Origin: an uncultured Eubacteriales bacterium
Lineage (GTDB): Bacteria; Bacillota; Clostridia; Oscillospirales; CAG-382
Assembly (NCBI GenBank): GCA_934446675.1
Contig: CAKSEL010000010.1
Coordinates: forward strand, 19,861-83,860
Direction of reading: 5' to 3'
Length of the DNA: 64,000 nucleotides
The notes below the pieces were generated by a model. It was not told where the DNA came from and searched no databases. It was given only the letters and a program-made list of their open reading frames with translations. Made by a program: the position numbers and the translations under genes. Positions 1 through 53,802 of this stretch are shown in pieces; within the stretch, counting starts at the first letter, position 1; each line of letters opens with the position of its first letter.

Positions 1-660
1 ATTCTCCAACTTTTCGACGGCGAAAAAGTTGCACTCTACTAAAGAGCGTAAACAAAAGCCGTTCGCGGCTCAGACGCCGCCGCGAAAGCGTGGCTACGGG
101 AGGATTTCACTCTAAAGAGTGTAAACGCCTACCGCAACTAACTACCCCTCCGAAATTTCAAAAACTCTCGTTTTGCACTTGTCCACATTGCTGTGTTGCG
201 AAATCGCCGCGCGACAGGCGCGCGGATATGGGGTTCTGTACGAAGTCAAACCATTTTGGAAAAAGTGTTATTTTTTATATTCTCCGACAGTCAACAGGAC
301 TCGCTTTTCTGCTCAGCTCGCTTACGCGAGATGACTTTTACAAATGTTAGTTTTTTGTTTCACGGGCGCGGAGTGAAAAATTCGGTTCTGTTTCGCCGGT
401 GCAAAGTTAAATACCGCATAAATTTCGGTTTCTGCGAAACAATTTCACTCACCAAAGTTCCCCATAGCACACAGTTTCCATAGTTTACTCACGCACCTGT
501 TTACATCTGAGTCAGCCGCCTGCCTTTTGGTGGCTGACGGTACAAGCTGGCGGCAGAGAGTATCCCGTAGCCTTTTCCTTATTTAAGGGCTTACTTGTTT
601 TTCTTTGCAGCTTTCTTTTTAAAAAGAAAGCGCGTATTCTTTTTCGGCGTAGTTGTATCT
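1..660 (-). repeat. Mosaic intergenic repeat, copy 1 (minus orientation, cut by window edge)
   Basis: The reverse complement aligns module-for-module with 4682-5348. Modules: A palindrome 610-631, hairpin B allele iii 511-538, hairpin C 317-330, hairpin D 207-225, hairpin E 62-86, F-variant hairpin 8-30. Its 5' end lies just after the stop (679-681) of the minus-strand M23 gene. Confidence 0.9.
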
Positions 661-678
661 ATGTTTCACGTGAAACAT

Positions 679-2943: not shown

Positions 2944-3137
2944 CGCGGCAAATAAAATGCGCGGAGCATAAGAATACTATTATACAATTATATATTATAC
3001 ACGCTTTTTTCAAATAAATCAAGTGGCAGAATATGTACGCGGCGTGTGCTGCGTGTGACAGGGACGGACAAAGTTTGAATAAAGTTCCGGGATAATTTTA
3101 AAAGTCGTGCCCGGCACGCGTATTTTCGCGGTTATAC

Positions 3138-3166
3138 TTGACTTTGGCGCAATAATTGTGTATAAT
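3138..3166 (+). promoter_or_regulatory. Sigma-A-type promoter candidate for guaB
   Basis: TTGACT (3138-3143), a 17-nt spacer ending in TGTG, then TATAAT (3161-3166), about 40 nt upstream of the guaB ATG. Confidence 0.6.
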
Positions 3167-3187
3167 AAAATGTAAAAATATACATGA

Positions 3188-4681
<1,494 letters not shown>

Positions 4682-4699
4682 GGGTACGCAAGAATACGC

Positions 4700-4721
4700 G
4701 CTTTCTTTTTAAAAAGAAAGC
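4700..4721 (+). other. Module A: 22-bp perfect palindrome GCTTTCTTTTTAAAAAGAAAGC
   Basis: Identical palindrome at 610-631, 17386-17407, 20539-20560, 22735-22756, 27601-27622, 31915-31936, 43055-43076, 46036-46057 and 52732-52753. It is always followed by TGCAAAGAAAAC. Confidence 0.95.
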
Positions 4722-4789
4722 TGCAAAGAAAACGGTAGCCCTTAATTTAGAAAAAGGCTATGGGATACTCCCTGCCGCCAGCTTGTTCC

Positions 4790-4818
4790 GTCCGCAGTCA
4801 AACAGCAGGACTGCGGAC
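4790..4818 (+). other. Module B hairpin (allele i): GTCCGCAGTC-N9-GACTGCGGAC
   Basis: Perfect 10-bp inverted repeat. The same position in other copies carries allele ii or iii (see findings). Confidence 0.9.
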
Positions 4819-4934
4819 TAAGATTATAAATAATGTGCCGAAGTAAACTATGGAAATTCAGTACAAAGGGTTGCTTTGGAAAGTGAAATTACTTTGCACC
4901 ACCCAAACAACAAACTAACATTTGTAAAAGTCAT

Positions 4935-4948
4935 CTCGCGTAAGCGAG
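4935..4948 (+). other. Module C hairpin: CTCGC-GTAA-GCGAG (GNRA-type loop)
   Basis: 5-bp stem with a GTAA loop, flanked by conserved AAAGTCAT and CTGGGCAGAAAA. Confidence 0.85.
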
Positions 4949-5040
4949 CTGGGCAGAAAAGTGAGTCCTGTTGACTGCGTGATTATATAGAAAATAACAC
5001 TTGCGCCGAATTGGGTTTAACTTCGTACAGAACCCCATAT

Positions 5041-5059
5041 CCGCGCGCCTGTCGCGCGG
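5041..5059 (+). other. Module D hairpin (allele a): CCGCGCG-CCTGT-CGCGCGG
   Basis: 7-bp all-GC stem between conserved CCCCAT and CGATTT. Confidence 0.85.
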
Positions 5060-5179
5060 CGATTTCGCGGCACAGTTTCAGGGACATTGCGAAACGAGGA
5101 TTTTTGAGCTTTCGGGGGCGTATTTGGTTTCGGTGCGCGTTTACACTCTTTAGAGTGAAATCCTCCACGTAGCCGCGCT

Positions 5180-5204
5180 TTCGCTGCGGCGTTTGAGCGG
5201 CGAA
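5180..5204 (+). other. Module E hairpin: TTCGCTGC-GGCGTTTGA-GCGGCGAA, followed by a T-rich tract
   Basis: 8-bp stem with one U.G pair. It is followed by AAAATCTTTTGTTT, which makes it the most terminator-like hairpin inside the element. Confidence 0.8.
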
Positions 5205-5231
5205 AATCTTTTGTTTACACTCTTTAGAGCG

Positions 5232-5256
5232 CGACTTTTTCGATTCCGAAAAGTCG
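5232..5256 (+). other. Module F hairpin: CGACTTTTTCG-ATTC-CGAAAAGTCG (start of a Z unit)
   Basis: The core CTTTTCGATTCCGAAAAG recurs about 19 times in the window (by eye), always followed by GAATAGAGTTGCACATGGAAGTGAAT..CCGTTTCCGCCC or a variant. Confidence 0.9.
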
Positions 5257-5348
5257 GTGTATAGACTTGCACATAGCAGTGAATTATCTCTTTCCGCCCA
5301 AAACAGGCAACAATCACTCCCCCAATGTAGAAGAAAGGAGCAGAACAC

Positions 5349-6748: not shown

Positions 6749-7465
6749 GTGGAACAGAGAAAAAAACGTATTCTTATCGTCGAAGATGAAAGAGATATAT
6801 CGGAAATTCTCATGTATAATATAAAAAAGCAGGGGTTCGACGCCGACGCCGCGTTTGACGGCGAAAAGGGACTGGCTCTTGCGCTTTCGGGCAGCTATGA
6901 CCTTATATTGCTCGACGTAATGCTGCCGAAAATGGACGGCTTTGAAATATGCCGCAGGGTGCGTATGCGCCTCGATACGCCGATAATCATGCTTACGGCA
7001 AGAGAAGAAGAAAACGATAAGATAATGGGGCTGGATCTCGGCGCCGACGATTATATGACAAAGCCCTTCAGTCTCGGCGAGCTTACCTCCAGAATAAAAG
7101 CCAATATAAGACGTTATTCCGGCGAGGCGGTAGTGAGAAATACGGAAGATGACAGCGAAGACAGATTTATAAAAATAGAAGATCTCGAAATAGATACCGC
7201 AAGCTTTTCGGTAAAGAAAGGCGAACGTGATATCTCCCTCTCAAAGCAGCAGTATGAGCTTTTGCTGTTTCTGGCAAAGAACCGCGGCAAGAAGTTCAGA
7301 CAGGAGGCTCTTCTGGAGCAGGTCTGGGGATATGACGACGGCTTTTACGGCGATGTCAGAACCGTAGACGTAACCGTTGCAAGGCTCAGAAAACAAATAG
7401 AGGATAACCCGTCCGAACCAAAGATAATCAAGAATAAACGCGGTCTCGGCTACTATATCGACTGA
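6749..7465 (+). CDS. OmpR/PhoB-family response regulator
   Basis: Receiver motifs (ILIVEDE, LLDVMLPKMDGF) and a C-terminal winged helix (RTVDVTVARLRKQIE). GTG start. Confidence 0.93.
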   Translation: MEQRKKRILIVEDERDISEILMYNIKKQGFDADAAFDGEKGLALALSGSYDLILLDVMLPKMDGFEICRRVRMRLDTPIIMLTAREEENDKIMGLDLGADDYMTKPFSLGELTSRIKANIRRYSGEAVVRNTEDDSEDRFIKIEDLEIDTASFSVKKGERDISLSKQQYELLLFLAKNRGKKFRQEALLEQVWGYDDGFYGDVRTVDVTVARLRKQIEDNPSEPKIIKNKRGLGYYID

Positions 7466-7492: not shown

Positions 7493-9292
7493 ATGTACAA
7501 GACTTTAAATTCAAAGCTCGTGCTCATCTTCATAGTGTTTATAATTTCGGTAATGGCGACAGTGGGAATATTTCTCATGAACAGCGTTTTCAGCTTTTAT
7601 ACCGACGAATTTGTGTCGCAGGTAGACGAAGGCTTTTCCGATACCGTTGTAAAACAGCTTACCGACGCTTTGCAGTACGACGATTTCGCAAGCTCCCAGA
7701 ATAAACTGCTCGGCGCATATGCCAATGTGTTCGGCTTTGATTCGGGAAGAAGCTATTATATACTTGACGAAAACGCAAAAGTGCTTGCAAGCTCCGATTC
7801 CGACGCAAAAAGCCTTGAAATAACACAAAACCTGATTTCCGCAATGAACGGCACGGACGGAAAAAAACAGTCCTACGGCGCGGATTTTCTCGACTACGCA
7901 AGAGTGGTGAGCGACGGGAGCCGTTCGTGCATAATATATGTAAAGGACGATCTTTCCGAGATGAGAAAGCTGTCTTTCATGCAGTTTTCCATAATCATAC
8001 AGTCGCTTATAGTCGGACTTGTGATTGCTCTTGTAATGTCGTTCTTTCTCGCAAAGGCTATTACAAACCCGATAAAAAGCATTACAGGCGGTACTTTGAA
8101 AATTGCCTCGGGCGACTATTCCTACCGCATAACCTCGCGTTCGCGCGACGAGATAGGCATACTGTCAAATAACTTTAATTCCATGGCGCAGGTTATTGAA
8201 AACACTCTCGACGAGGTTTCGGGCGAGCGCGAAAAGCTCAAAAACGTGTTTAACCGCCTTAATGCGGGAGTTGCCGCCTTTGACGAAAACGGCAGCCTTA
8301 TGCATATAAATCCCAGCGCTCTTTCAATGCTCTCGCTTCCCGAAAACAACGCGCCGACCTTCAATGAGCTGACCGCGGCTCTCGGCACTCCCGAGGTTTC
8401 CATGCAGACGCTTAAAAACATAGGCAGTATTCATATAGATGAAAAGACGCTGTGCGATATTAAGACAAGAGAACTTGTGGTAAGCATAGATTTCGGCGTA
8501 TTCGGATATGACGGCGCGGCAAAGTCGGGCTTTATCGTCGTGTTCCAGAATATAACCGAAACGGCGCTGCTTGAAAAGAACAGACGCGAGTTTATCGCAA
8601 ATGTGTCGCATGAGCTGCGCACACCTCTCACAAGCGTAAAGGGCGCGACCGAAACCGTGCTTGAAGACGACGAAATGCCCGAAAGCATAAGAAAGCACTT
8701 TCTGAATATAGTAATTAACGAATCCGACAGAATGACGAGAATAGTTCAGGATCTGCTTGTGCTCTCAAGGCTCGATAACCGCCGTATGTCATGGAAACCG
8801 CATAAATTCGACCTGTACGACGCAATGAACCAGATGTGTACTGCTCTTCGCGCCGAAGCTCAGACGCACTCGCATACGCTTGAATTTGTAACGCCAAAGG
8901 GCGAGCCTATGCCCATCTTTGCCGATAAGGAAAGAATTGAACAGGTAATTACAAATATAATCGGAAACGCTATAAAGTACACTCCCGACGGAGGAAGAAT
9001 AACCGCGTCGCTCGAATACGACGAAAAACAGAGATATAAGATAACCGTAACGGATACCGGCGTCGGAATTTCAAAAGAGGATATTCCGCACCTGTTTGAA
9101 AGATTTTACAGAGTTGATAAATCGCGTTCGACCGACGCGGGCGGCACAGGACTCGGACTTTCCATAGCAAAGGATATTGTTGACGCGCATAACGGCAGCA
9201 TATCCGTAAGCAGCGAACCCGGAAAAGGCACAGCCGTGACCATAATCCTGCCCAAAGATACGAGAGTCGGTGAGGATAATGGCGAAAAATAA
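7493..9292 (+). CDS. Sensor histidine kinase (TM-HAMP-PAS-HisKA-HATPase)
   Basis: H-box ANVSHELRTPLTSVKG and G-box GTGLGLSIAKDIV, with two N-terminal hydrophobic segments. Adjacent to the response regulator. Confidence 0.93.
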   Translation: MYKTLNSKLVLIFIVFIISVMATVGIFLMNSVFSFYTDEFVSQVDEGFSDTVVKQLTDALQYDDFASSQNKLLGAYANVFGFDSGRSYYILDENAKVLASSDSDAKSLEITQNLISAMNGTDGKKQSYGADFLDYARVVSDGSRSCIIYVKDDLSEMRKLSFMQFSIIIQSLIVGLVIALVMSFFLAKAITNPIKSITGGTLKIASGDYSYRITSRSRDEIGILSNNFNSMAQVIENTLDEVSGEREKLKNVFNRLNAGVAAFDENGSLMHINPSALSMLSLPENNAPTFNELTAALGTPEVSMQTLKNIGSIHIDEKTLCDIKTRELVVSIDFGVFGYDGAAKSGFIVVFQNITETALLEKNRREFIANVSHELRTPLTSVKGATETVLEDDEMPESIRKHFLNIVINESDRMTRIVQDLLVLSRLDNRRMSWKPHKFDLYDAMNQMCTALRAEAQTHSHTLEFVTPKGEPMPIFADKERIEQVITNIIGNAIKYTPDGGRITASLEYDEKQRYKITVTDTGVGISKEDIPHLFERFYRVDKSRSTDAGGTGLGLSIAKDIVDAHNGSISVSSEPGKGTAVTIILPKDTRVGEDNGEK

Positions 9293-12230: not shown

Positions 12231-12257
12231 GAACAGGAGGCGGTGATTTTTGACCGG

Positions 12258-12338
12258 TTTGGGCGGGAAAAGATAATTCACTGCCACTTGCAATTCTATA
12301 CACCGACTTTTCGGAATCGAAAAAGTCGCGCTCTTTAG
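12258..12338 (-). repeat. Mosaic repeat copy 3a: isolated Z unit in reverse orientation
   Basis: The reverse complement reads GCGCGACTTTTTCGATTCCGAAAAGTCGGTGTATAGAATTGCAAGTGGCAGTGAATTATCTTTTCCCGCCCAAA. Hairpin F lies at 12304-12328. Confidence 0.9.
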
Positions 12339-12394
12339 TTTTATGTTTAGTTGGCGAAAGAGTGCAAGTCTGATAAAACTTAATACAAAAATAT

Positions 12395-12433
12395 ACTCTG
12401 TGCATTGTTCTACAACTTTGCACAGAGTTTTTC
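12395..12433 (+). terminator. Rho-independent terminator candidate (thrC), unique sequence
   Basis: ACTCTGTGCA (12395-12404) pairs with TGCACAGAGT (12419-12428): a perfect 10-bp stem with a 14-nt loop, followed by TTTTC. It lies between repeat fragments 3a and 3b. Confidence 0.7.
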
Positions 12434-12439
12434 TATACA

Positions 12440-12995
12440 TAAAAGTAGAATTTGATCCAAGTTTCTTGCCGATAGGCAAGCTGGGCAGAAAAACGTGTCC
12501 TGTTGACTGCGTAATAACTCGAAAAAATTACTTTTTTCACCTAAAATTAAGTTTACGCAGACCGCAGCGTGACATGGCGTAAGAGATAGAGCTGAGATAA
12601 ACAAATTTTACTTAGAAACCAACCCCATCGAGCAGTGCGGAGCATCTGCGAGCGAAAATTTAAAACTTCGGAGGTGCGGGAAAGTTTTACCGACGATAGT
12701 TTGATGTGTGGAAAGGAAGCCGCGCTTTCGCTGCGGCGTTTGAGCGGCGAAAATCTTTTGCGACTTTTTCGATTCCGAAAAGTCGGAAGAATAGAGTTGC
12801 ACATGGAAGTGAATTATTCTTTTTCGCCCAAAACAAGCGTCAGTTAGATAAACACAAAGTATCTTTTCTACTTTTCGATTCCGAAAAGTCGGAGAATAGA
12901 GCTGCACATGGCAGTGAATTAAAATTTCTCGCCCAAAATAAGCAACAGCCAGCCAAGCACAAAACATCTTTCCGCCCAACCTCCCTGCTCTCTTT
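12440..12995 (+). repeat. Mosaic repeat copy 3b: 5'-truncated copy (from module C onward)
   Basis: Hairpin C variant CTTGCCGATAGGCAAG at 12465-12480, then CTGGGCAGAAAA..CCTGTTGACTG, module V, D allele b, S3 spacer, E hairpin and two Z units. Confidence 0.9.
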
Positions 12996-15818: not shown

Positions 15819-15855
15819 ATGAATTGTGGGTTATTTTGGATTGAGTTATGCTTGG

Positions 15856-15990
15856 TTTGGGTGAAAAAAGATAATTCACTGCCACTTGCAAGTCTATTCT
15901 CCAACTTTTCGATTCCGAAAAGCGGAGATACAAAGCTGCACTTTGAAGAATATTTCCCATTTCCGCCCAAACAAGCAACAATCAACCAAA
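15856..15990. repeat. Mosaic repeat copy 4: two Z units head-to-head around one F hairpin
   Basis: TTTGGGTGAAAAAAGATAATTCACTGCCACTTGCAAGTCTATTCTCCAA, then CTTTTCGATTCCGAAAAG (15905-15922), then CGGAGATACAAAGCTGCACTTTGAAGAATATTTCCCATTTCCGCCCAAA. The left arm is a reversed Z and the right arm a forward Z. Confidence 0.85.
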
Positions 15991-15996
15991 ATTACC

Positions 15997-17358: not shown

Positions 17359-18268
17359 AAACATTTTCGCCGAAGAAGAATACGCGCTTTCTTTTTAAAA
17401 AGAAAGCTGCAAAGAAAACGGGGAACGCGCTTTTCTGAAGAAAAGCTGAGCGCTCTAAAGAGTGTAAACAAAAGACTTTCGTAGCCCTTAAATAAAAATA
17501 AAGCTGTTGGCAACTCTGTGCCGCCAGCTTGTACCGTTCGCAGTCGAACAGCAGGACTGCGAACTCAAATCTAAGCAGGTGCCGAAGTAAACTATGGAAG
17601 TTGTGTACTATTGGTAACTTTGAAAAGTGAAACCCCTTTGCAACAGCGAAATAAAGTAAAAATTTCACTTCGCACCCGCGAAACAAAAACTAACATTTGT
17701 AAAAGTCATCTTGCCGTAGGCAAGCTGGGCAGAAAAATTTGTCCTGTTGACTGTTTGAATATATTAAGAGTAACATTCTTGCCAAAATAGTTTAACTTCG
17801 TACAGAACCCCATATCCGCGCGTCAGTCGCGCGGCGATTTTGCCGTAAGTTACACGGACGTACCGTAGTAGCAAGGCGGTCACGCTTGTGAGAATAATAG
17901 AGGTGAGAAAAGCTGTGTTTCGGGCAAAATCCTTCCGTCGGGGGATTGTCAAGGGGCGAGTAGTCCCTTGAACGGCTTTTCGACCACTTTTCGCCGCCGA
18001 AAAGTGCATATTTAAAGTTGCACTTTGAAGAATATAACCCGTTTCAGCTCAAAATAATCTGAAGTCAGCCACACGCAAGTGTAGTTCGCTTTCGCGGCGG
18101 CGTTTGAGCCGCGAAAATCTTTTGTCATTTATCCTCGCAGGGGACTTTTTCGATTCCGAAAAGTGAGAGAATAGAGTTGCAATTAGAAGTGAGTTATCCT
18201 TTTTAACCCAAAATAAGTAACACTCAGCCAAACAAAAAGTATTAAAAAATTTTGAAAAAAGAATATAG
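17359..18268 (+). repeat. Mosaic intergenic repeat, copy 5 (910 bp)
   Basis: A palindrome 17386-17407, a 60-bp insertion at 17421-17480, hairpin B allele ii 17536-17564, hairpin C allele ii 17710-17724, D allele a variant, S2-like spacer and two Z units. Confidence 0.93.
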
Positions 18269-20506: not shown

Positions 20507-21285
20507 GGACGCGAAGGGGAACGCGCTGAAGGTTACGCGCTTTCTTTTTAAAAAGAAAGCTGCAAAGAAAACGGTAGCCCCTAATTTAGAAAAGAATTGT
20601 TGGATACTCTCTGCCTCCGGCTTGTACCGTCAGCCACCAAAAGTCAGGCGGCTGACTTAAATGTGAACAATGGTGCCGAAGCAAGCTATGGAAATTCAGT
20701 ACAAATGGTTGCTTTGAAAAGTGAAATAATTACGCACCGACGAAACACAAAACTAATACTTGTAAAAGTCATCTTGCCGTAGGCAAGATGGGCAGAAAAA
20801 TGAGTCCTGTTGACTGTTGGAGAATATAAAAAATAACACTTTTTCCGAAATGGTTTGAGTTTGTACAAACCCCATTATCGAGCAGTGCGGAGCATCTGCG
20901 AGCGATTTTGCCGTAGGTTGTGTGGACGCACCGTAGTAACAAGTGGTCACTTTGGTAAAAGCGGTTGAGGGGTAGAAATCCGAGTTCAAGGCAAAATCCC
21001 CCACGTAGCCACGCTTTCGCGGCGGCGTTTGAGCCGCGAAAATCTTTTGTAACTTTTTCGATTCCGAAAAGTTAGAGAATAGAGTTGCACATGGCAGTGA
21101 ATAACCCGTTTCCGCTCAAACAGGCAAAAATCAGCCAAACAAAAAACATCTTTCAGCTTTTCTACTTAGAAAAGCGTCAGTATAAAGTCGCACTTTGAAA
21201 AAAGTAACCCGTTTCCGCCCAAAAAAAAGTAAGTAAAATTTAAATATTTACCCAAAATTTAAGAAGAAGAAAAGGAGAATTTTCC
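20507..21285 (+). repeat. Mosaic intergenic repeat, copy 6 (779 bp)
   Basis: A palindrome 20539-20560, hairpin B allele iii 20629-20656, C allele ii, D allele b, S2, E hairpin 21016-21040, F hairpins at 21051-21073 and 21156-21175. Confidence 0.93.
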
Positions 21286-22695: not shown

Positions 22696-23565
22696 AGAAT
22701 ACGAAGGGGTACGAAGGGGTACGCAAGAATACGCGCTTTCTTTTTAAAAAGAAAGCTGCAAAGAAAACGGTAGCCCTTAAATAAGAAAAAAGCTGTGGGA
22801 TATTCTCTGCCGCCAGCTTGTTCCGTCCGCAGTCGAACAGCAGGACTGCGGACTAAGATGTAAACAGGTGCATGAGTAAACTATGGAAACTGTGTGCTAA
22901 GGGTAGCTTTGGAAAGTGAAATTGCTCCGCACTATCTAAACATAAAACTAAAATTCAGCAAAGTCATCTCGCGTAAGCGAGCTGGGCAGAAAAATAAGTC
23001 CTGTTGACTGTGTAATAACAGTAAAAATTAACATTTGCGCACCCAAAATAAAGTTTACGCAGACCGCGGCGTGACATGACGTAAAACTTGGCATTATGTC
23101 AACCAATCCATGTTCAGATACCAACCCCATCGAGCAGTGCGGAGCATCTGCGAGCGAAGATTGCAAACTTCGGAGGCGCGGAAAAAGCTTTACCGACGAT
23201 AGTTAGATGTGTGGAGAAGAAGCCGCGCTTTCGCTGCGGCGTTTGAGCGGCGAAAATCTTTTGTCATTTATCCTCGCAGGGGACTTTTTCGATTCCGAAA
23301 AGTGAGAGAATAGAGTTGCAGGTGGAAGTGGATAATCCGTTTTCGCCAAAAATAAGTGAAAATCAGCCACACGCAAGTGTAGTTCGCTTTCGCTGCGGCG
23401 TTTGAGCGGCGAAAATCTTTTGTTTACACTCTTTAGAGCGCCCGTCTTTTCGATTCCGAAAAGCGGAGATATAGGGTTGCACATGGAAGTGAATAATCAA
23501 TGTGGCACAAAAATATTCATTCCTCCTAAACTAATCAAAAATCACCCCAAAAAGGAATAAAAAAT
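22696..23565 (+). repeat. Mosaic intergenic repeat, copy 7 (870 bp)
   Basis: Four tandem TACG decamers (22697-22736), A palindrome 22735-22756, hairpin B allele i 22825-22853, C, V, D allele b, S3 and two E+F+Z units. Confidence 0.93.
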
Positions 23566-27569: not shown

Positions 27570-28282
27570 TTTTTGTCCCGAAGGGGTACGAGGAATACGC
27601 GCTTTCTTTTTAAAAAGAAAGCTGCAAAGAAAACGGTAGCCCTTAAATAAGAATAGAATTGTGGGATACTCCCTGCCGCCAGCTTGTTCCGTCCGCAGTC
27701 AAACAGCAGGACTGCGGACTCAGATATAAATAAGGTGCCGAAGTAAACTATGGAAATTGTGTACGGACGATAACTTTGAAAAGTGAAATTGCTCCGCACC
27801 AACAAAACAAAAAACTAACATCTGTAAAAGTCATCTCGCGCAAGCGAGCTGGGCAGAAAAACGAGTCCTGTTGACTGTGAAATAGCTCAAAAAAATTACT
27901 TTTTTGCACCCAAAATAAAGTTTACGCAGACCGCAGCGTGACATGGCATAAAAATCCGGAATTATGTCAACTAAACCGTGTTTAGATACCAACCCCATCG
28001 AGCAGTGCGGAGCATCTGCGAGCGATGATAGAGAATTTCGGAGGTGCGCGGAGGCTTTACCGACAATAGTTTGATGTGTGGAAACATAGCCACGCTTTCG
28101 CGGCGGCGTTTGAGCCGCGAAAATCTTTTGTTTACACTCTTTAGAGCGCGACTTTTTCGATTCCGAAAAGTCGGAGAATAAAGCTGCAAGTGGCAGTGAA
28201 TAATCCGTTTCCTCCTAAACTTAAGAAACAATCAGCCCAAATAATCAGTACCCTGAAAAAAGTAGAGAAAGGAAGATACCCG
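27570..28282 (+). repeat. Mosaic intergenic repeat, copy 8 (713 bp)
   Basis: A palindrome 27601-27622, hairpin B allele i 27691-27719, hairpin C with GCAA loop 27835-27848, V, D allele b, S3 and one E+F+Z unit. It ends GAAAGGAAGATACCCG just before TTG 28283. Confidence 0.93.
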
Positions 28283-31895: not shown

Positions 31896-32730
31896 GGAGT
31901 ACGCAGGAGAACGCGCTTTCTTTTTAAAAAGAAAGCTGCAAAGAAAACAATAGCCCCTAATTTAGAAAAGAATTGTGGGATACTCTCTGCCGCCAGCTTG
32001 TACCGTCCGCAGTCAAACAGCAGGACTGCGGACTAAGATGTAAACAGGTGCGTGAGTAAACTATGGAAATTGTGTACTAATGGCAGCTTTGGAAAGTGAA
32101 ATAATTACGCACAAACGAAATAAATCCCAAATTTCACTTTGCACCCACGAAACAAAAAACTAAAATTCAGCAAAGTCATCTCGCGTAAGCGAGCTGGGCA
32201 GAAAAACGAGCCCTGTTGACTGCAAAATAACTTGAGAAAATTACTTTTTTGCACTCGAAATAAAGTTTACGCAGACCGTAACGTGACATGGCATAAAAGT
32301 TTGGCATTATGTCAACTAAACCGTGTTTAGATACCAACCCCATCGAGCAGTGCGGAGCATCTGCGAGCGATTTCGCCGTAGGTTACGTGGACGCACCGTA
32401 GTAACAAGTGGTCGTTTTGGTAAGGGTTTTGGAGGGGAAGAATGTGCGTTTAGGGCGAAATCCTCCACGTAGCCACGCTTTCGCGGCGGCGTTTGAGCCG
32501 CGAAAATCTTTTGTTACCTTTTCGATTCCGAAAAGTAAGCATATAAAGTCGCACTTTGAAGAAAGTAATCCGTTTCCGCCCAAACCAAGCAAAAATAAGC
32601 CAAACGTAAAACATCTTTTCACTTTTCGATTCCGAAAAGAGGAGATATAAGGTTGCAATTGGAAGTGAATGTCCCGCTTCAGCCCAAAATAATCAAAAAA
32701 AGAAAATAGAAGAAGAAAAGAGGAGTCCCC
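31896..32730 (+). repeat. Mosaic intergenic repeat, copy 9 (835 bp)
   Basis: A palindrome 31915-31936, hairpin B allele i 32005-32033, C, V, D allele b, S2, E and two Z units. It ends AAGAGGAGTCCCC just before GTG 32731. Confidence 0.93.
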
Positions 32731-37241: not shown

Positions 37242-37640
37242 AGGGAGTTCCTCTTTTCTTCTTCTTTTCTTTGATTTATGTTGGGCTTGTTTTCTTTTGT
37301 TTTGGGCGGAAATTGGTTAGTCACTGCCATGTGCAAGCGTATACCTCCGCTTTTCGGAATCGAAAAGACGGGCAAAAGATTTTCGCGGCTCAAACGCCGC
37401 CGCGAAAGCGTGGCTTTATTTTCCACACAAAATTGTATCGTCGGAAAAACATCTTCGCGCCCCCGAAGTCTGCAATCTTCGCTCGCAGACGCTCCGCGCT
37501 GCTCGATATGGGGTTCTGTACAAAGCTAAACTATTTCGGGGAAAGTGTTATTTTTTATATACTCATGCAGTCAACAGGACACACTTTTACGACCAGCTCG
37601 CTGTCGCGAGATGACTACGGCTGAATTTTACTTTTGTGTT
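37242..37640 (-). repeat. Mosaic repeat copy 10a: 5'-truncated copy in minus orientation, 3' end at the polA start
   Basis: On the reverse strand: hairpin C (GACA loop) 37597-37610, D allele b, S3, E hairpin, F hairpin 37350-37367, Z core, then SD and the polA GTG. Confidence 0.9.
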
Positions 37641-37680
37641 TGGTAAACTAAACTTGCAAGTTCGCTCTAAAACGTAATAT

Positions 37681-38156
37681 ACCGCACCAAATTGCACTCA
37701 CAAAGACGTGACACGGCAGAAAAACAGTATTATGTCAACCAAGTCATTGCTAAGAAACCAACCCCATCGAGCAGTGCGAAGCATCTGCGAGCGATTTTGC
37801 CGTAGGTTATGTGGACGCACCGTAGTAACAAGTGGTCACTTTGGAAAAAGCGTTTGAGGGGTAAAAAGTCATGTTTAGGGCAAAATCCTCCACGTAGCCA
37901 CGCTTTCGCGGCGGCGTTTGAGCCGCGAACGGCTTTTGTTTACGCTCTTTAGAGTGCAACTTTTTCGCCGTCGAAAAGTTGGAGAATAGAGCTGCACATG
38001 GAAGTGGATTATCTTTTTAGCCCCAAATAAGCAACACTCAGCCAACCGCAGAACATCTTTCAGCTTTTCGATTCCGAAAAGCGTCGGTATAAAGTTGCAC
38101 TTTGAAGAAAATTCCCCGTTTCCGCCCAAATCGACCTCAAAATATCTTCAATCTTC
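37681..38156 (+). repeat. Mosaic repeat copy 10b: 5'-truncated copy in plus orientation
   Basis: Starts in module V, then D allele b, S2, E, F-variant hairpin 37957-37981, Z, and a second F+Z. It ends at the stop codon (38157-38159) of the minus-strand HD gene. Confidence 0.9.
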
Positions 38157-43022: not shown

Positions 43023-43399
43023 GGGTACGAAGGAGTACGCGCCGAAGAATACGCGCTTTCTTTTTAAAAAGAAAGCTGCAAAGAAAACAATAGCCCTTAA
43101 TTTAGAAAAAGGCTACGGGATACTCTGTGCCGCCAGCTTGTGCCGTCAGCCACCAAAAGTCGGGCGGCTGACTCAAATCTAAGCAGGTGCGTGAGTAAAC
43201 TATGGAAATTATGTGCTGACGGTGACTTTGGAAAGTGAAACTCTTTTGTCATTTATCCTCGCAGAGGACTTTTTCGATTCCGAAAAGTGAGTGTAGAAAG
43301 CTGCAAGCAGAAGTGAATTTCCCGTTTCCGCCAAAAATTAAGATATATTTCTCAAATTTTTAAGATACATTTTTCCCAAAAAAGAAAGGAAGAGTCCCG
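43023..43399 (+). repeat. Mosaic intergenic repeat, copy 11 (377 bp, internal deletion)
   Basis: A palindrome 43055-43076, hairpin B allele iii 43145-43172, and the 5' half of P3, joined directly to the linker TCATTTATCCTCGCAGAGG plus one F+Z unit. It ends GAAAGGAAGAGTCCCG just before ATG 43400. Confidence 0.92.
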
Positions 43400-46017: not shown

Positions 46018-46820
46018 GAGTACGCAAGAATACGCGCTTTCTTTTTAAAAAGAAAGCTGCAAAGAAAACAGTAGCCCTTAATTTAGAAAAGAATTGCGGA
46101 ATACTCTCTGCCGCCAGCTTGTACCGTTCGCAGTCGAACAGCAGGACTGCGAACTCAGATGTGAGCAGGTGCTGAAGTAAACTATGGAAATTTAGTACAA
46201 AGGGCAACTTTGGAAAGTGATATTACTTCGCACCACCCAAACATAAAACTAAAATTCAGCAAAGTCATCTCGCGTAAGCGAGTTGGGCGGAAAAACGAGT
46301 CCTGTTGACTGCATAATAACGCATAAGAATTGCATATTTGAGCCTTAAATATAGTTTACGCAGACCGCAACGTGACATGGCATAAAAGTTGAACTGTGTT
46401 AACCAATTTGAGCGTAGACACCAGCCCCATCGAGCAGTGCGGAGCATCTGCGAGCGATTTTGCCGTAGGTTACGTGGACGCACCGTAGTAACAAGTGGTC
46501 ACTTTAGAAAAATCGTTTGAGGGGTAGAAAGTCATGTTCAGGGCAAAATCCTCCACGTAGCCACGCTTTCGCTGCGGCGTTTGAGCGGCGAAAATCTTTT
46601 GCGACTTTTTCGATTCCGAAAAGTCGGTGAATAGACTTGCAAGTGACAGTGGATAATCCTTTTCCGCCTAAAATAATCAAAATTTGATTAAACATAAAAC
46701 ATCTTTCAGCTTTTCTCCGTAGAAAAGCGTCAGTATAGGGTTGCACATGGAAGTGGATTATCCGTTTCCGCCCAAACCAAGAAACAATCAGCCAAGAAAA
46801 AAGAAAGGAAGTCTCTCACC
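46018..46820 (+). repeat. Mosaic intergenic repeat, copy 12 (803 bp)
   Basis: A palindrome 46036-46057, hairpin B allele ii 46126-46154, C, V, D allele b, S2, E (U.G allele) and two Z units. It ends GAAAGGAAGTCTCTCACC just before GTG 46821. Confidence 0.93.
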
Positions 46821-50421: not shown

Positions 50422-51292
50422 AGTACGCAGGAATACGCGCTTTATAGGGGTACGCGCTTTTCTGAAGAAAAGCTGAGCGCTCTAAAGAGTGTAAACAAAA
50501 GACTTTCGTAGCCCTTAAATAAGAAAAGAATTGTGGGATACTCCCTGCCGCCAGCTTGTACCGTTCGCAGTCAAACAGCAGGACTGCGAACTCAGATGTA
50601 AACAGGTGCGTGAGTAAACTATGGAAATTCAGTACAAAGGGTAGCTTTTGAAAGTGAAATTACTCCGCACCTACGAAACAACAAACTAACATTTGTAAAA
50701 GTCATCTTGCCGTAGGCAAGCTGGTCGGAAAAGTTAGTCCTGTTGACTGTGAAATAACAGAAAAAGTTAACACTTGCGCACCTCAAATAAAGTTTACGCA
50801 GACCGCAACGTGACATGGCGTAAAACTTGGCATTATGTCAACCAACTTGTGTGTAGATGCCAGCCCCATCCGCGCGCCTGTCGCGCGGCGATTTTGCCGT
50901 AAGCTACACGGACGTACCATAGTAGCAAGGCGGTCGCATTTGTAAGGATAATAAAGGTGAAAAAAGCCATGTTCAGGGCAAAATCCTCCACGTAGCCACG
51001 CTTTCGCGGCGGCGTTTGAGCCGCGAAAATCTTTTGCCTTTTATCCTCGCAGGGGACTTTTTCGATTCCGAAAAGAGGGGGAATAGGGTTGCACATGGCA
51101 GTGAATTATCTTTTCTCGCCAAAATAAGCAACAGCTAGCCAAACACCAAACATCTTTCAGCTTTTCTCCGTAGAAAAGCGTCAGTACAAAGTTGCACTTT
51201 GAAGAATATTTCCCGTTTCCGCCCAAATAGGCAACAATCAACCAATCAAAAACTAAAAAATTATATAGAATCTCAGAAAGAAGATGTAAAAT
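50422..51292 (+). repeat. Mosaic intergenic repeat, copy 13 (871 bp)
   Basis: TACG decamers. The A palindrome is replaced by the insertion variant (hairpin 50456-50473, inverted 27-mer 50475-50501). Then hairpin B allele ii 50563-50591, C allele ii, V, D allele a, S2, E and two Z units. Confidence 0.93.
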
Positions 51293-52702: not shown

Positions 52703-53802
52703 GGAATAGATAGGGATTACGAGGGATACGCGCTTTCTTTTTAAAAAGAAAGCTGCAAAGAAAACGGTAGTCCTTAATTTAGAAAAGAATTGTGGGATAC
52801 TCTCTGCCGCCAGCTTGTACCGTCCGCAGTCGAACAGCAGGACTGCGGACTAAGATAAAAACAGGTGCCAAAGCAAGCTATGGAAATTGTGTGCTGAAGG
52901 TGGCTTTGGTGAGTGAAACCGTTTCGCAACAATGAAATAAAGTAAAAATTTCACTTTGCGCCGACGAAACAGAACCGAATTTTCGCTCCGCACCGACGGA
53001 AACAATAAACTAAAATTCAGCAAAGTCATCTCGCGTAAGCGAGCTGGGTAGAAAAATGAGTCCTGTTGACTGCGAAATAACTTAAAAAAATTACTTTTTC
53101 GCACCTAAAATAAAGTTTACGCAGACCGCAGCGTGACATGGTACAAGAACTCGGCATTATGTCGACCAATTTGTGTTTAGAAACCAGCCCCATCCGCGCG
53201 CCTGTCGCGCGGCGATTTCGCGGCACAGTTTCAGGGACAGTGCGAAATGTGAGTTTTTGAAATTTCGGAGGCGTAAATGGTTTTGGTGCGCGTTTACACT
53301 CTTTAGAGTGAAATCCTCCACGTAGCCACGCTTTCGCGGCGGCGATTGAGCCGCGAACGGCTTTTGTTTACGCTCTTTAGAGTGCAACTTTTTCGCCGTC
53401 GAAAAGTTGGAGAATAGAGTTTCAAGTGGAAGTGAGTAATCCGTTCCCGCCAAAAACAGGTGAAAATCAGCCATACGCAAGTTTAGTTCGCTTTCGCGGC
53501 GGCGTTTGAGCCGCGAAAATCTTTTGTCATTTATCCTCGCAGGGGACTTTTTCGATTCCGAAAAGTGAGGAGAATAGACTTGCAAGTGGAAGTGAATTTC
53601 CCGTTTCCACCCAAAATAAGCAATACTCAGCCAAACAAAAAGTATCTTTTCGCTTTTCGATTCCGAAAAGTCGGTGAATAGAGTTGCACATGGAAGTGGA
53701 TTATCATTTTCCGCCCCAAAATAAGCAACACTCAGCCAAACCCGCAAACCTGTCCTGTGCAAAGAGAAAAAAGATATTAAAAGTTAGAAAGGAAGATCCC
53801 CG
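52703..53802 (+). repeat. Mosaic intergenic repeat, copy 14 (1100 bp, longest)
   Basis: A palindrome 52732-52753, hairpin B allele i 52822-52850, extended P3, C, V, D allele a, S1, then three Z units (F hairpins 53385-53409, 53546-53566, 53653-53670) with two E hairpins. It ends GAAAGGAAGATCCCCG just before GTG 53803. Confidence 0.93.

Follow-up and report, generated by a model that had tools for sequence, protein, structure and literature searches.

A base-paired hairpin carried by modular intergenic insertion elements in an uncultured gut Clostridia species

Results and Discussion

We analysed a stretch of 64,000 nucleotides from contig CAKSEL010000010.1 of an uncultured Eubacteriales bacterium (the window), in which an earlier note had reported a hairpin, hairpin B, at positions 17536–17564 and at ten other sites. 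We conclude with high confidence that hairpin B is a component of intergenic insertion elements that are modular and exchange segments between copies. The base pairing of its stem is preserved among copies, and the pattern of variation supports the view that this pairing is actively kept, by more than shared ancestry. As to function, we tentatively favour, without strong conviction, a sense-strand RNA stem-loop in 3' untranslated region (UTR) or intercistronic transcripts, with a role like that of repetitive extragenic palindromic (REP) sequences and bacterial interspersed mosaic elements (BIMEs).

Hairpin B occurs as three stem versions in one conserved core

All 11 copies in the window lie where the earlier note had placed them, and each carries one of the three stem versions that it described, alleles i, ii and iii (Table 1). 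The hairpin is 28–29 nucleotides long with a loop of 8–9 nucleotides, and every allele folds to the proposed 10-pair stem. Predicted energies are far below those of shuffled sequences for both RNA (-15.2 to -20.5 kcal/mol, z -4.4 to -5.9) and DNA (-6.9 to -11 kcal/mol). The three alleles sit at homologous positions, all within a single alignable core of 183 nucleotides.

The sequences surrounding the hairpin are conserved at all 11 copies. In the focal copy, GCCAGCTTGTACC lies directly 5' of the hairpin and TCAAAT directly 3'. The left flank GCCAGCTTGTNCC has ten matches in the window at one mismatch or fewer, compared with 0.11 expected. The eleventh, at 20616, reads TCCGGCTTGTACC and has two mismatches, so that the description of these flanks as invariant was slightly overstated. 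Further variants of the left flank (GCCGGCTTGT, GCCAGCATGT, GCCAGCCTGT and GCCAGCTTAT) occur in other strains or in flanking DNA. A pattern consisting of flank, hairpin and the downstream block CTATGGAA has 11 matches in the window against 0.00 expected. The stem is followed by T(A/C/T)A(A/G)AT without a run of T residues, and a terminator scan did not call hairpin B as an intrinsic terminator.

Copies in other strains reveal exchange of segments

The pattern used to scan a genome collection, with 18 fixed bases and a wide gap, was too loose and returned mostly chance matches. Real relatives were found only in a metagenome-assembled genome (MAG) from the human gut, 'uncultured Clostridiales bacterium UMGS1387', which is syntenic with the window and ~94–96% identical to it in genes; identity between strains in the elements is roughly 85%. 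A stricter scan of metagenomes yielded 25 stretches from several gut assemblies, and a profile search of the window together with the DNA of these relatives identified 55 cores, 49 of which are distinct. Two scans of viral contigs returned one chance match inside a coding region and nothing more. Contigs identical to the ends of the window add ~20 kb with three more copies, all of allele ii, and thus the density of about one copy per 5–6 kb continues beyond the window.

Comparison between strains shows that copies exchange segments by ectopic gene conversion, with breakpoints in conserved blocks. At five of nine loci, random paralogs are at least as close to a copy as its positional ortholog is (rank of the ortholog 5–48 of 48). 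The hairpin B allele differs between strains at four of the nine: sites 17523, 46113 and 50550 carry allele ii in the window and iii in the other strain, and site 52809 carries i in the window and iii in the other strain. These differences indicate that the alleles reflect few events. Pairwise alignments consist of mosaic blocks with sharp boundaries. When 20566–20748 is aligned with positions 23–206 of a relative's locus (L116), the hairpin upstream of the core, hairpin A, is swapped for an alternative version, A', and the next ~175 nucleotides are identical but for one base, a junction that marks a sharp breakpoint of gene conversion or recombination. With breakpoints located in conserved blocks, hairpin B moves as an indivisible cassette, of which there are three versions, and recombinant stems whose arms fail to match are hardly ever seen.

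Between strains, insertions and deletions were seen only inside elements, and no element was seen to be wholly present in one strain and wholly absent from another. At 15838–15992, between a DHHW-family gene and dnaN, the window has a short partial element where another strain (locus L127, ~3092–3764) has ~670 nucleotides more. This site is a large insertion/deletion polymorphism of element content.

Covariation and linkage within the stem

The pairing test used 44 distinct copies, found in the window, in MAG UMGS1387 and in gut metagenomes, with allele iii placed in register with alleles i and ii by a single N in its shorter loop. Standard pairs are formed by 95.5% of stem cells, and double-sided changes occur at four of the ten stem pairs (C-G/U-A, C-G/A-U, A-U/C-G and U-A/C-G). 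None of 500 shuffles equalled the observed pairing or covariation score, and controls in which the register was slid paired just 19–40% of cells. The stem positions therefore do not vary independently, in agreement with the preserved pairing that had been proposed for the window copies.

The added copies contain no new stems, just variants of the three known alleles. Three to four distinct copies carry an allele iii' whose stem has a G-C pair in place of the A.C mismatch, a single i/ii hybrid stem has C.A on the sense strand, and the remaining rare variants are one G.U at the foot of the stem and three single mismatches. Because more copies brought no new stems, the covariation rests on about two deep events, and the cell counts overstate its signal.

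Linkage between sites bears on the same question independently of phylogeny. Because the copies are recombining mosaics, linkage decays within a few bases, and polymorphic sites only 3–6 nucleotides outside the stem have r2 values of ~0–0.09 with stem sites (0.34 at one site). Alleles i and ii differ by a compensatory pair whose two positions are 24 nucleotides apart in near-identical surroundings, yet these positions are tightly associated (r2 = 0.85 with Fisher p = 3.4e-6 among the 26 i/ii copies, and r2 = 0.90 over all 44). By comparison, none of 1,023 other pairs of polymorphic sites at least 6 nucleotides apart exceeds an r2 of 0.78, and none of the 343 pairs separated by 15–35 nucleotides exceeds 0.58. 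Such an outlier is what selection against mismatched recombinants predicts, and we regard the pattern as a clean population-genetic signature of compensatory selection. The block that separates alleles i and ii from allele iii is in complete linkage, loop positions included, but this carries less information, since gene conversion should transfer a diverged block whole. The earlier proposal that selection acts on the hairpin rather than on its sequence is thus sustained in that pairing is kept beyond shared ancestry, and is tempered by the small number of deep events.

Part of this pattern could also arise if the hairpin had no selected function. The alleles would then be subfamily markers derived from a few founder elements; gene conversion would move the diverged 25-nucleotide block whole, with tracts ending in the identical flanks, and hairpin-templated repair (quasi-palindrome correction) would copy changes from one arm to the other. 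Such a history would account for the occurrence of just three stem versions in 49 unique copies and for the complete linkage of the i/ii and iii blocks through the loop. It also agrees with the shuffling of non-hairpin segments as alternative blocks, and with an approximately neutral rate of divergence of the elements relative to genes. However, it does not predict that the i/ii pair should be coupled in otherwise identical sequence while nearer sites are unlinked. Moreover, the A.C mismatch of allele iii persists in at least 13 distinct copies, which indicates that templated self-correction is not efficient, and within allele classes only five rare disruptive variants are found over the 20 stem positions, whereas the 9-nucleotide loop has several common polymorphisms. 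We therefore consider a purely neutral origin of the pairing quite unlikely.

No support for a more extensive RNA structure around hairpin B

A mutual-information scan of the core detected complementary covariation nowhere but in hairpin B, and two short enclosing helices proposed by RNAalifold have no double changes and score no better than shuffles. Rfam 15 gave no matches in the window at gathering score. A permissive Rfam search of one element (E <= 5) returned Ref68 as its sole match, elsewhere in the element, with 13 bits versus a gathering score of 44 and E = 3.2. With no other covarying helix and no Rfam match, hairpin B is a simple stem-loop with conserved flanks and is not riboswitch-like; it is not a new RNA class. 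The expectation of a structured RNA is accordingly upheld for the paired stem-loop itself, but not for a free-standing structured RNA.

Candidates for a larger fold and for a peptide in the core were rejected. A larger fold around hairpin B, comprising GCUUGU/ACAGGU and UGC/GYA helices, is conserved, but it lacks double changes and its partners vary independently. An alternative pairing of GCCGCCAGC with a downstream segment is likewise conserved, is unsupported by double changes and has partners that vary independently. A small peptide beginning at ATGGAAA... has a stop whose position varies from codon 6 to codon 23 among copies.

Strand and possible role

In every case the core begins 40–115 nucleotides past the stop codon of its upstream neighbour, which is encoded on the same strand, and the element would probably be transcribed on the sense strand as a continuation of that upstream gene. 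The stem-loop of -15 to -20 kcal/mol would then constitute a 3'-UTR or intercistronic RNA structure. By analogy with REP and BIME sequences within operons, it could serve as a barrier to 3'-to-5' exonucleases, as a processing site or as a protein-binding site, and selection on such a role would keep the pairing.

The earlier note correctly stated that the hairpin alone does not fix the folded strand, but its context leans towards the sense strand. A terminator scan found no plus-strand terminator-like sites between the stop codon and hairpin B. In six copies, a canonical sense-strand terminator (10–11 bp stem, U5-6) is situated 33–41 nucleotides past the core, which gives the sensible order of gene, hairpin A, hairpin B and terminator. 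When folding energies of the two strands were compared directly, the plus strand gave the more stable core in 34 of 46 copies. Wobble pairing at two common polymorphisms, which lie opposite G48 and U60, is retained on the plus strand only, and one locus (L094) has a G.U pair that is likewise specific to the plus strand. Loops of hairpin C, which lies further downstream in the element, were rejected as strand evidence: they read GTAA, GATA, GACA and GCAA, and just two of these fit the GNRA consensus.

Several considerations weigh against an RNA role. We infer both transcription and strand, and a function as a stabiliser or processing site is proposed by analogy only. The covariation, as noted above, has just about two deep events beneath it. 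The commonest form of allele iii has an A.C mismatch on the sense strand that corresponds to G.U on the antisense strand, and the same is true of the C.A mismatch in the single i/ii hybrid. Conserved flanks around a hairpin that is conserved in structure and variable in sequence are equally typical of folded single-stranded DNA recognised by a protein. Finally, selection against polar insertions, rather than an RNA role of hairpin B, could account for the co-orientation of elements with genes.

The mismatches raise the alternative that the hairpin acts in an antisense RNA, whose transcription would start at the right end of the element and proceed towards the upstream gene. On the minus strand only, allele iii and the i/ii hybrid are fully paired when G.U is allowed, and allele iii reaches -19.3 kcal/mol there versus -15.2 on the plus strand. 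Read on the minus strand, hairpin A was called as terminator-like. Scans of the elements for sigma-70 promoters gave ambiguous results in both directions. The weak candidates are TTGACT-N18-TAACAT in the sense direction and a right-end module, TTGCYT-N16-GATWAT, in the antisense direction, which points back into the element and of which the scan flagged one site (5310–5283). However, copies agree poorly in the promoter-like hexamers, only the sense strand provides the canonical terminators and the wobble pairs of other modules, and both the G.U pair at L094 and the greater stability of most cores favour the plus strand. An antisense role appears very improbable.

The modular intergenic element

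The element measures 0.3–1.1 kb and occupies the whole gap from the stop codon of one gene to the start of the next. Self-comparison of the window delimits 14 element intervals that total 9,973 nucleotides, or 15.6% of its length (Table 1). The left, stop-codon-proximal end of the element is formed by the core and its upstream neighbours, and hairpin B is found ~110–170 nucleotides inside this end. The element begins at the stop codon, or a few tens of bases beyond it, with tandem units of 10–14 nucleotides (RGRGTACGMA or GAATACGCGCCGAA). These are followed by hairpin A (GCTTTCTTTTT/AAAAAGAAAGC) or its alternative A', and by the 183-nucleotide core with hairpin B; hairpin A precedes the core in all 43 testable cases. 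Next come one to three units ending in TTTGCACC..GAAAC or, in some copies, a canonical terminator, and then further modules that carry hairpins of their own. The conserved right end, ...CCGTTTCCGCCCAAAAYARGCAA..., adjoins the ribosome-binding site of the next gene. In a comparison of left flanks across elements, the stop codon was the only common feature.

Hairpin B is not the only hairpin with alternative versions (examples of such modules lie at 4935–4948, 17700–17714 and 23120–23150). Hairpins C, E and H each occur in two or more: C as CTCGC-GNNA-GCGAG or CTTGCC-GTA-GGCAAG, E as CCGCGCG-cctgt-CGCGCGG or a different version of 26 nucleotides, and H as CTTTTTCGattcCGAAAAG or GCTTTTCTccgtAGAAAAGC. 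Hairpins A' and H' share the stem GCTTTTC(T). Short forms consist of the left and right ends only (43023–43399 in the window, and two loci, L025 and L085, among its relatives), and right-hand modules occur alone, duplicated or inverted at 12243–12975 and 37272–38131. The two inverted partial elements at 37272–38131 form a large inverted repeat.

Some modules have features of their own. The tandem units, seen for instance at 43023–43055, 22696–22740 and 4682–4700, vary in number between loci and strains, from about three in the window to five of 14 nucleotides at locus L052 (~6780–6830), and make the left edge of the element a hypervariable minisatellite. The canonical sense-strand terminator module, ACTCTGTGC-N15-GCACAGAGT followed by T5-6, is present at 12395–12431 of the window and at 8021–8057 of locus L110; most element copies keep just its 3' half, as the repeated TTTGCACC..GAAAC units. 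Right-end modules such as those at 5283–5310 and 53684–53750 contain the quasi-palindrome GGATWATCC.

Table 1. Positions of hairpin B, conserved cores and elements in the window
Feature	Positions	Strand	Description
Hairpin B, focal copy	17536–17564	+	Allele ii, GTTCGCAGTC-GAACAGCAG-GACTGCGAAC
Hairpin B	46126–46154	+	Allele ii, GTTCGCAGTC-N9-GACTGCGAAC
Hairpin B	50563–50591	+	Allele ii
Hairpin B	4790–4818	+	Allele i, GTCCGCAGTC-N9-GACTGCGGAC
Hairpin B	22825–22853	+	Allele i
Hairpin B	27691–27719	+	Allele i
Hairpin B	32005–32033	+	Allele i
Hairpin B	52822–52850	+	Allele i
Hairpin B	20629–20656	+	Allele iii, GTCAGCCACC-N8-GGCGGCTGAC, one A.C mismatch
Hairpin B	43145–43172	+	Allele iii
Hairpin B	511–538	-	Allele iii; element co-oriented with minus-strand M23/G5 peptidase gene
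Core MB, focal copy	17473–17655	+	183 nucleotides; nhmmer
Core MB	423–599	-	nhmmer
Core MB	4727–4910		nhmmer
Core MB	20566–20748		nhmmer
Core MB	22762–22944		nhmmer
Core MB	27628–27810		nhmmer
Core MB	31942–32123		nhmmer
Core MB	43082–43252		nhmmer
Core MB	46063–46245		nhmmer
Core MB	50500–50681		nhmmer
Core MB	52759–52941		nhmmer
Hairpin A, focal element	17386–17407	+	GCTTTCTTTTT/AAAAAGAAAGC
Alternative hairpin A', focal element	17429–17446		
Whole element, focal	17359–18268	+	dnaN (stop 17358) to ParC/GyrA-like gene (start 18269)
Whole element	4682–5348	+	IMPDH stop to next gene start
Whole element	20507–21285	+	
Whole element	22696–23565	+	GH28-like gene to dxr
Whole element	27570–28189	+	
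Whole element	31896–32730	+	
Short-form element	43023–43399	+	Hairpin A and MB joined to right-end modules
Whole element	46018–46802	+	
Whole element	50422–51292	+	SLT to M18 aminopeptidase
Whole element	52703–53802	+	M18 to galactokinase
Element running off window start	1–678	-	Downstream of M23/G5 peptidase gene
Partial element	12243–12975	+	Without hairpins A and B; inverted right-end module, terminator (~12395–12431), downstream modules
Inverted pair of partial elements	37272–38131		YfbR-like gene to polA; right-hand modules only, without hairpin B

The elements were inserted into compact operon junctions

The genes between elements are ordinary housekeeping genes, among them those for IMPDH, DnaN, a ParC/GyrA-like protein, Dxr, SecA, RF1, Sua5, PolA, M18 aminopeptidase and galactokinase. 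Four sister species have M18 aminopeptidase homologues that are 78–82% identical and the same gene order (SecA ... RF1-Sua5-CoaE-SLT-M18-GalK). The junctions between these genes are compact in the sister species: 20–33 bp from SLT to M18, 28–54 bp from M18 to GalK and 23–63 bp from the gene for a 202-aa protein to FlK, compared with 871, 1100 and 377 bp, respectively, in the window. At each insert in the window the stop codon stays at the left edge and the ribosome-binding site at the right edge, and neither a core profile nor BLAST found anything in the four sister species. Together these observations show that the elements are lineage-specific insertions into once-compact operon junctions, inserted in one uncultured gut Clostridia species that is represented by MAG UMGS1387.

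Insertions of this kind raise the question of mobility. Hairpin B and its flanks might be a single-stranded DNA structure read by a HUH/Y1 transposase (RAYT or the TnpA of IS200/IS605) or by another recombinase, an enzyme that mobilised the element or drives the exchange of segments; with shape rather than sequence being recognised, pairing would be kept. This would explain why a replaceable stem sequence is held between near-invariant flanks, why alleles and modules are swapped at orthologous loci, and why the hairpin is stable as DNA. Lineage-specific inserts with conserved left and right ends and internally deleted short forms are what non-autonomous mobile DNA typically looks like, and inspection by eye showed no terminal inverted repeats. 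Hairpins of IS608 and of REP sequences are typically imperfect palindromes in which one mismatch is fixed. In addition, the tetranucleotide CGTC, a tag of some REP sequences (PMC3733652), straddles the foot of alleles i and iii.

However, no transposase or recombinase is encoded among the Pfam-scanned genes of the window or the called genes of the ~20 kb extensions, and tblastn with an IS200 TnpA sequence, a weak probe, had no match in ~450 kb of DNA. Hairpin B always occurs singly within the one conserved core, with no inverted dimers and no counterpart at the right end, and the strains show internal insertions and deletions rather than complete presence/absence of elements. The orientation of elements also tracks the gene and not a single replication direction. 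At locus L110, a plus-strand copy follows a plus-strand gene and faces a convergent gene, and 4 kb away a minus-strand copy heads minus-strand genes, with its expected upstream gene lying beyond the end of the locus. The HUH/RAYT precedent invoked in the earlier note therefore fits in so far as hairpin B is a multi-copy extragenic palindrome; it fits poorly in that inverted dimers are absent, that the hairpin is always part of a larger unit and that no HUH gene was found in the DNA searched. We think recognition as single-stranded DNA rather unlikely. A more general form of this proposal is that the elements are an undescribed kind of non-autonomous recombining or mobile DNA at post-stop operon junctions, with hairpin B and its flanks as the folded DNA or RNA site of a dedicated enzyme that could insert the element or catalyse a cassette-like exchange of hairpin versions; this we hold to be decidedly improbable. 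Readings of the element as a group II intron, an integron or a CRISPR array were rejected, as boundary motifs, an integrase or repeats are lacking.

Relationship to known intergenic repeats

The element is best filed as an unusually large, strictly co-oriented variant of mosaic interspersed intergenic repeats, and it resembles REP/BIME and BOX sequences more than a free-standing structured RNA. It shares with BIME- and BOX-like repeats an intergenic location, multiple copies, modules that are optional, duplicated or inverted, and the existence of short and long forms. Within E. coli REP sequences, Y and Z units differ by compensatory stem changes. Like hairpin B, the REP units of Enterobacteria (Y, Z1 and Z2) are short, GC-rich imperfect palindromes present in many extragenic copies after stop codons and inside operons. 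Their roles include mRNA 3'-end protection, termination and protein binding, and BIMEs are mosaics of such units. Hairpin B, at 28–29 nucleotides and with 11 copies in 64 kb and three more in 20 kb, falls within the definition of a REP as an extragenic palindrome of 20–40 nucleotides.

REP families include subsets with different stems in which the palindrome is kept, and they carry GTAG or CGTC tags; most REPs are found as head-to-head dimers, and linkage to RAYT genes is seen in some cases (PMC3733652). The survey of these families lists no Firmicutes (PMC3733652); the host of the elements described here belongs to the Clostridia. At hairpin B, the CGTC of alleles i and iii is split across flank and stem (C and GTC), allele ii has CGTT, and a GTAG is present ~45 nucleotides upstream rather than at the foot. 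Unlike REPs, hairpin B never occurs alone or as an inverted dimer but always in a fixed core of ~180 nucleotides within an element of 0.3–1.1 kb, and its loop is 8–9 nucleotides rather than 4–5. The copies are also strictly co-oriented with the upstream gene, and the genes scanned in the window and its extension include no RAYT gene.

Other intergenic repeats are known from Firmicutes and elsewhere, such as BOX of Streptococcus pneumoniae, bcr1 of the Bacillus cereus group, ERIC, and the Correia elements (CREE) of Neisseria. BOX-type repeats are modular (boxA, boxB in variable number, and boxC), are co-transcribed with their neighbours, and have transcripts that are predicted to fold into stable stem-loops. 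They can contain promoters, terminators or processing sites, and compensatory changes have been reported for bcr1. The element described here has no sequence similarity to any of these four families and is several-fold larger. It differs further in that no terminal inverted repeats or target duplications were seen, that hairpin cassettes swap between loci, and that tandem units of 10–14 nucleotides abut the stop codon.

Two other systems show a partial likeness. The ends of IS200/IS605 elements and of their non-autonomous derivatives, PATEs (palindrome-associated transposable elements), are asymmetric and without inverted repeats, have sub-terminal hairpins that are read as single-stranded DNA, insert in a specific orientation and give rise to internally deleted derivatives. 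In contrast, neither TnpA nor TnpB was found here, apart from the stop codon there is no fixed tetranucleotide target, copies within 4 kb of each other take their orientation from genes on both strands, and hairpin B has no twin at the right end. Integron attC sites are imperfect palindromes, conserved in structure and variable in sequence, between co-oriented genes. The genes flanking the present elements are not cassettes but syntenic housekeeping operons whose order is kept in sister species; the element is ~10 times larger than attC, has no R/L box pattern, and no integrase was found among the window genes.

If the preferred reading of hairpin B as an RNA stem-loop within an inserted element is correct, a lineage of gut Clostridia has filled operon junctions of 20–60 bp with elements of 0.3–1.1 kb while leaving its housekeeping operons intact. 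The species would then be a natural experiment in how selfish intergenic DNA and host gene expression are accommodated, and in how frequent ectopic gene conversion interacts with selection on base pairing. It would also extend REP/BIME-like biology to a bacterial group in which such repeats had not been described.

Additional observations

One sister species contains an unrelated spacer of 496 bp with internal tandem duplications (locus L129, 5894–6389), at the junction between the gene for a 465-aa protein and that for DUF951, which measures 2–42 bp in the other sister species. This spacer may represent a different repeat family in a related genome; an apparent likeness to hairpin A and to downstream modules was not confirmed by BLAST or nhmmer. 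In the window, a perfect parS-like palindrome, TGTTTCACGTGAAACA, is present at ~645–660 on the minus strand, between the M23/G5 peptidase stop codon and the beginning of the element. Its sequence suggests a ParB site, possibly near the replication origin region.

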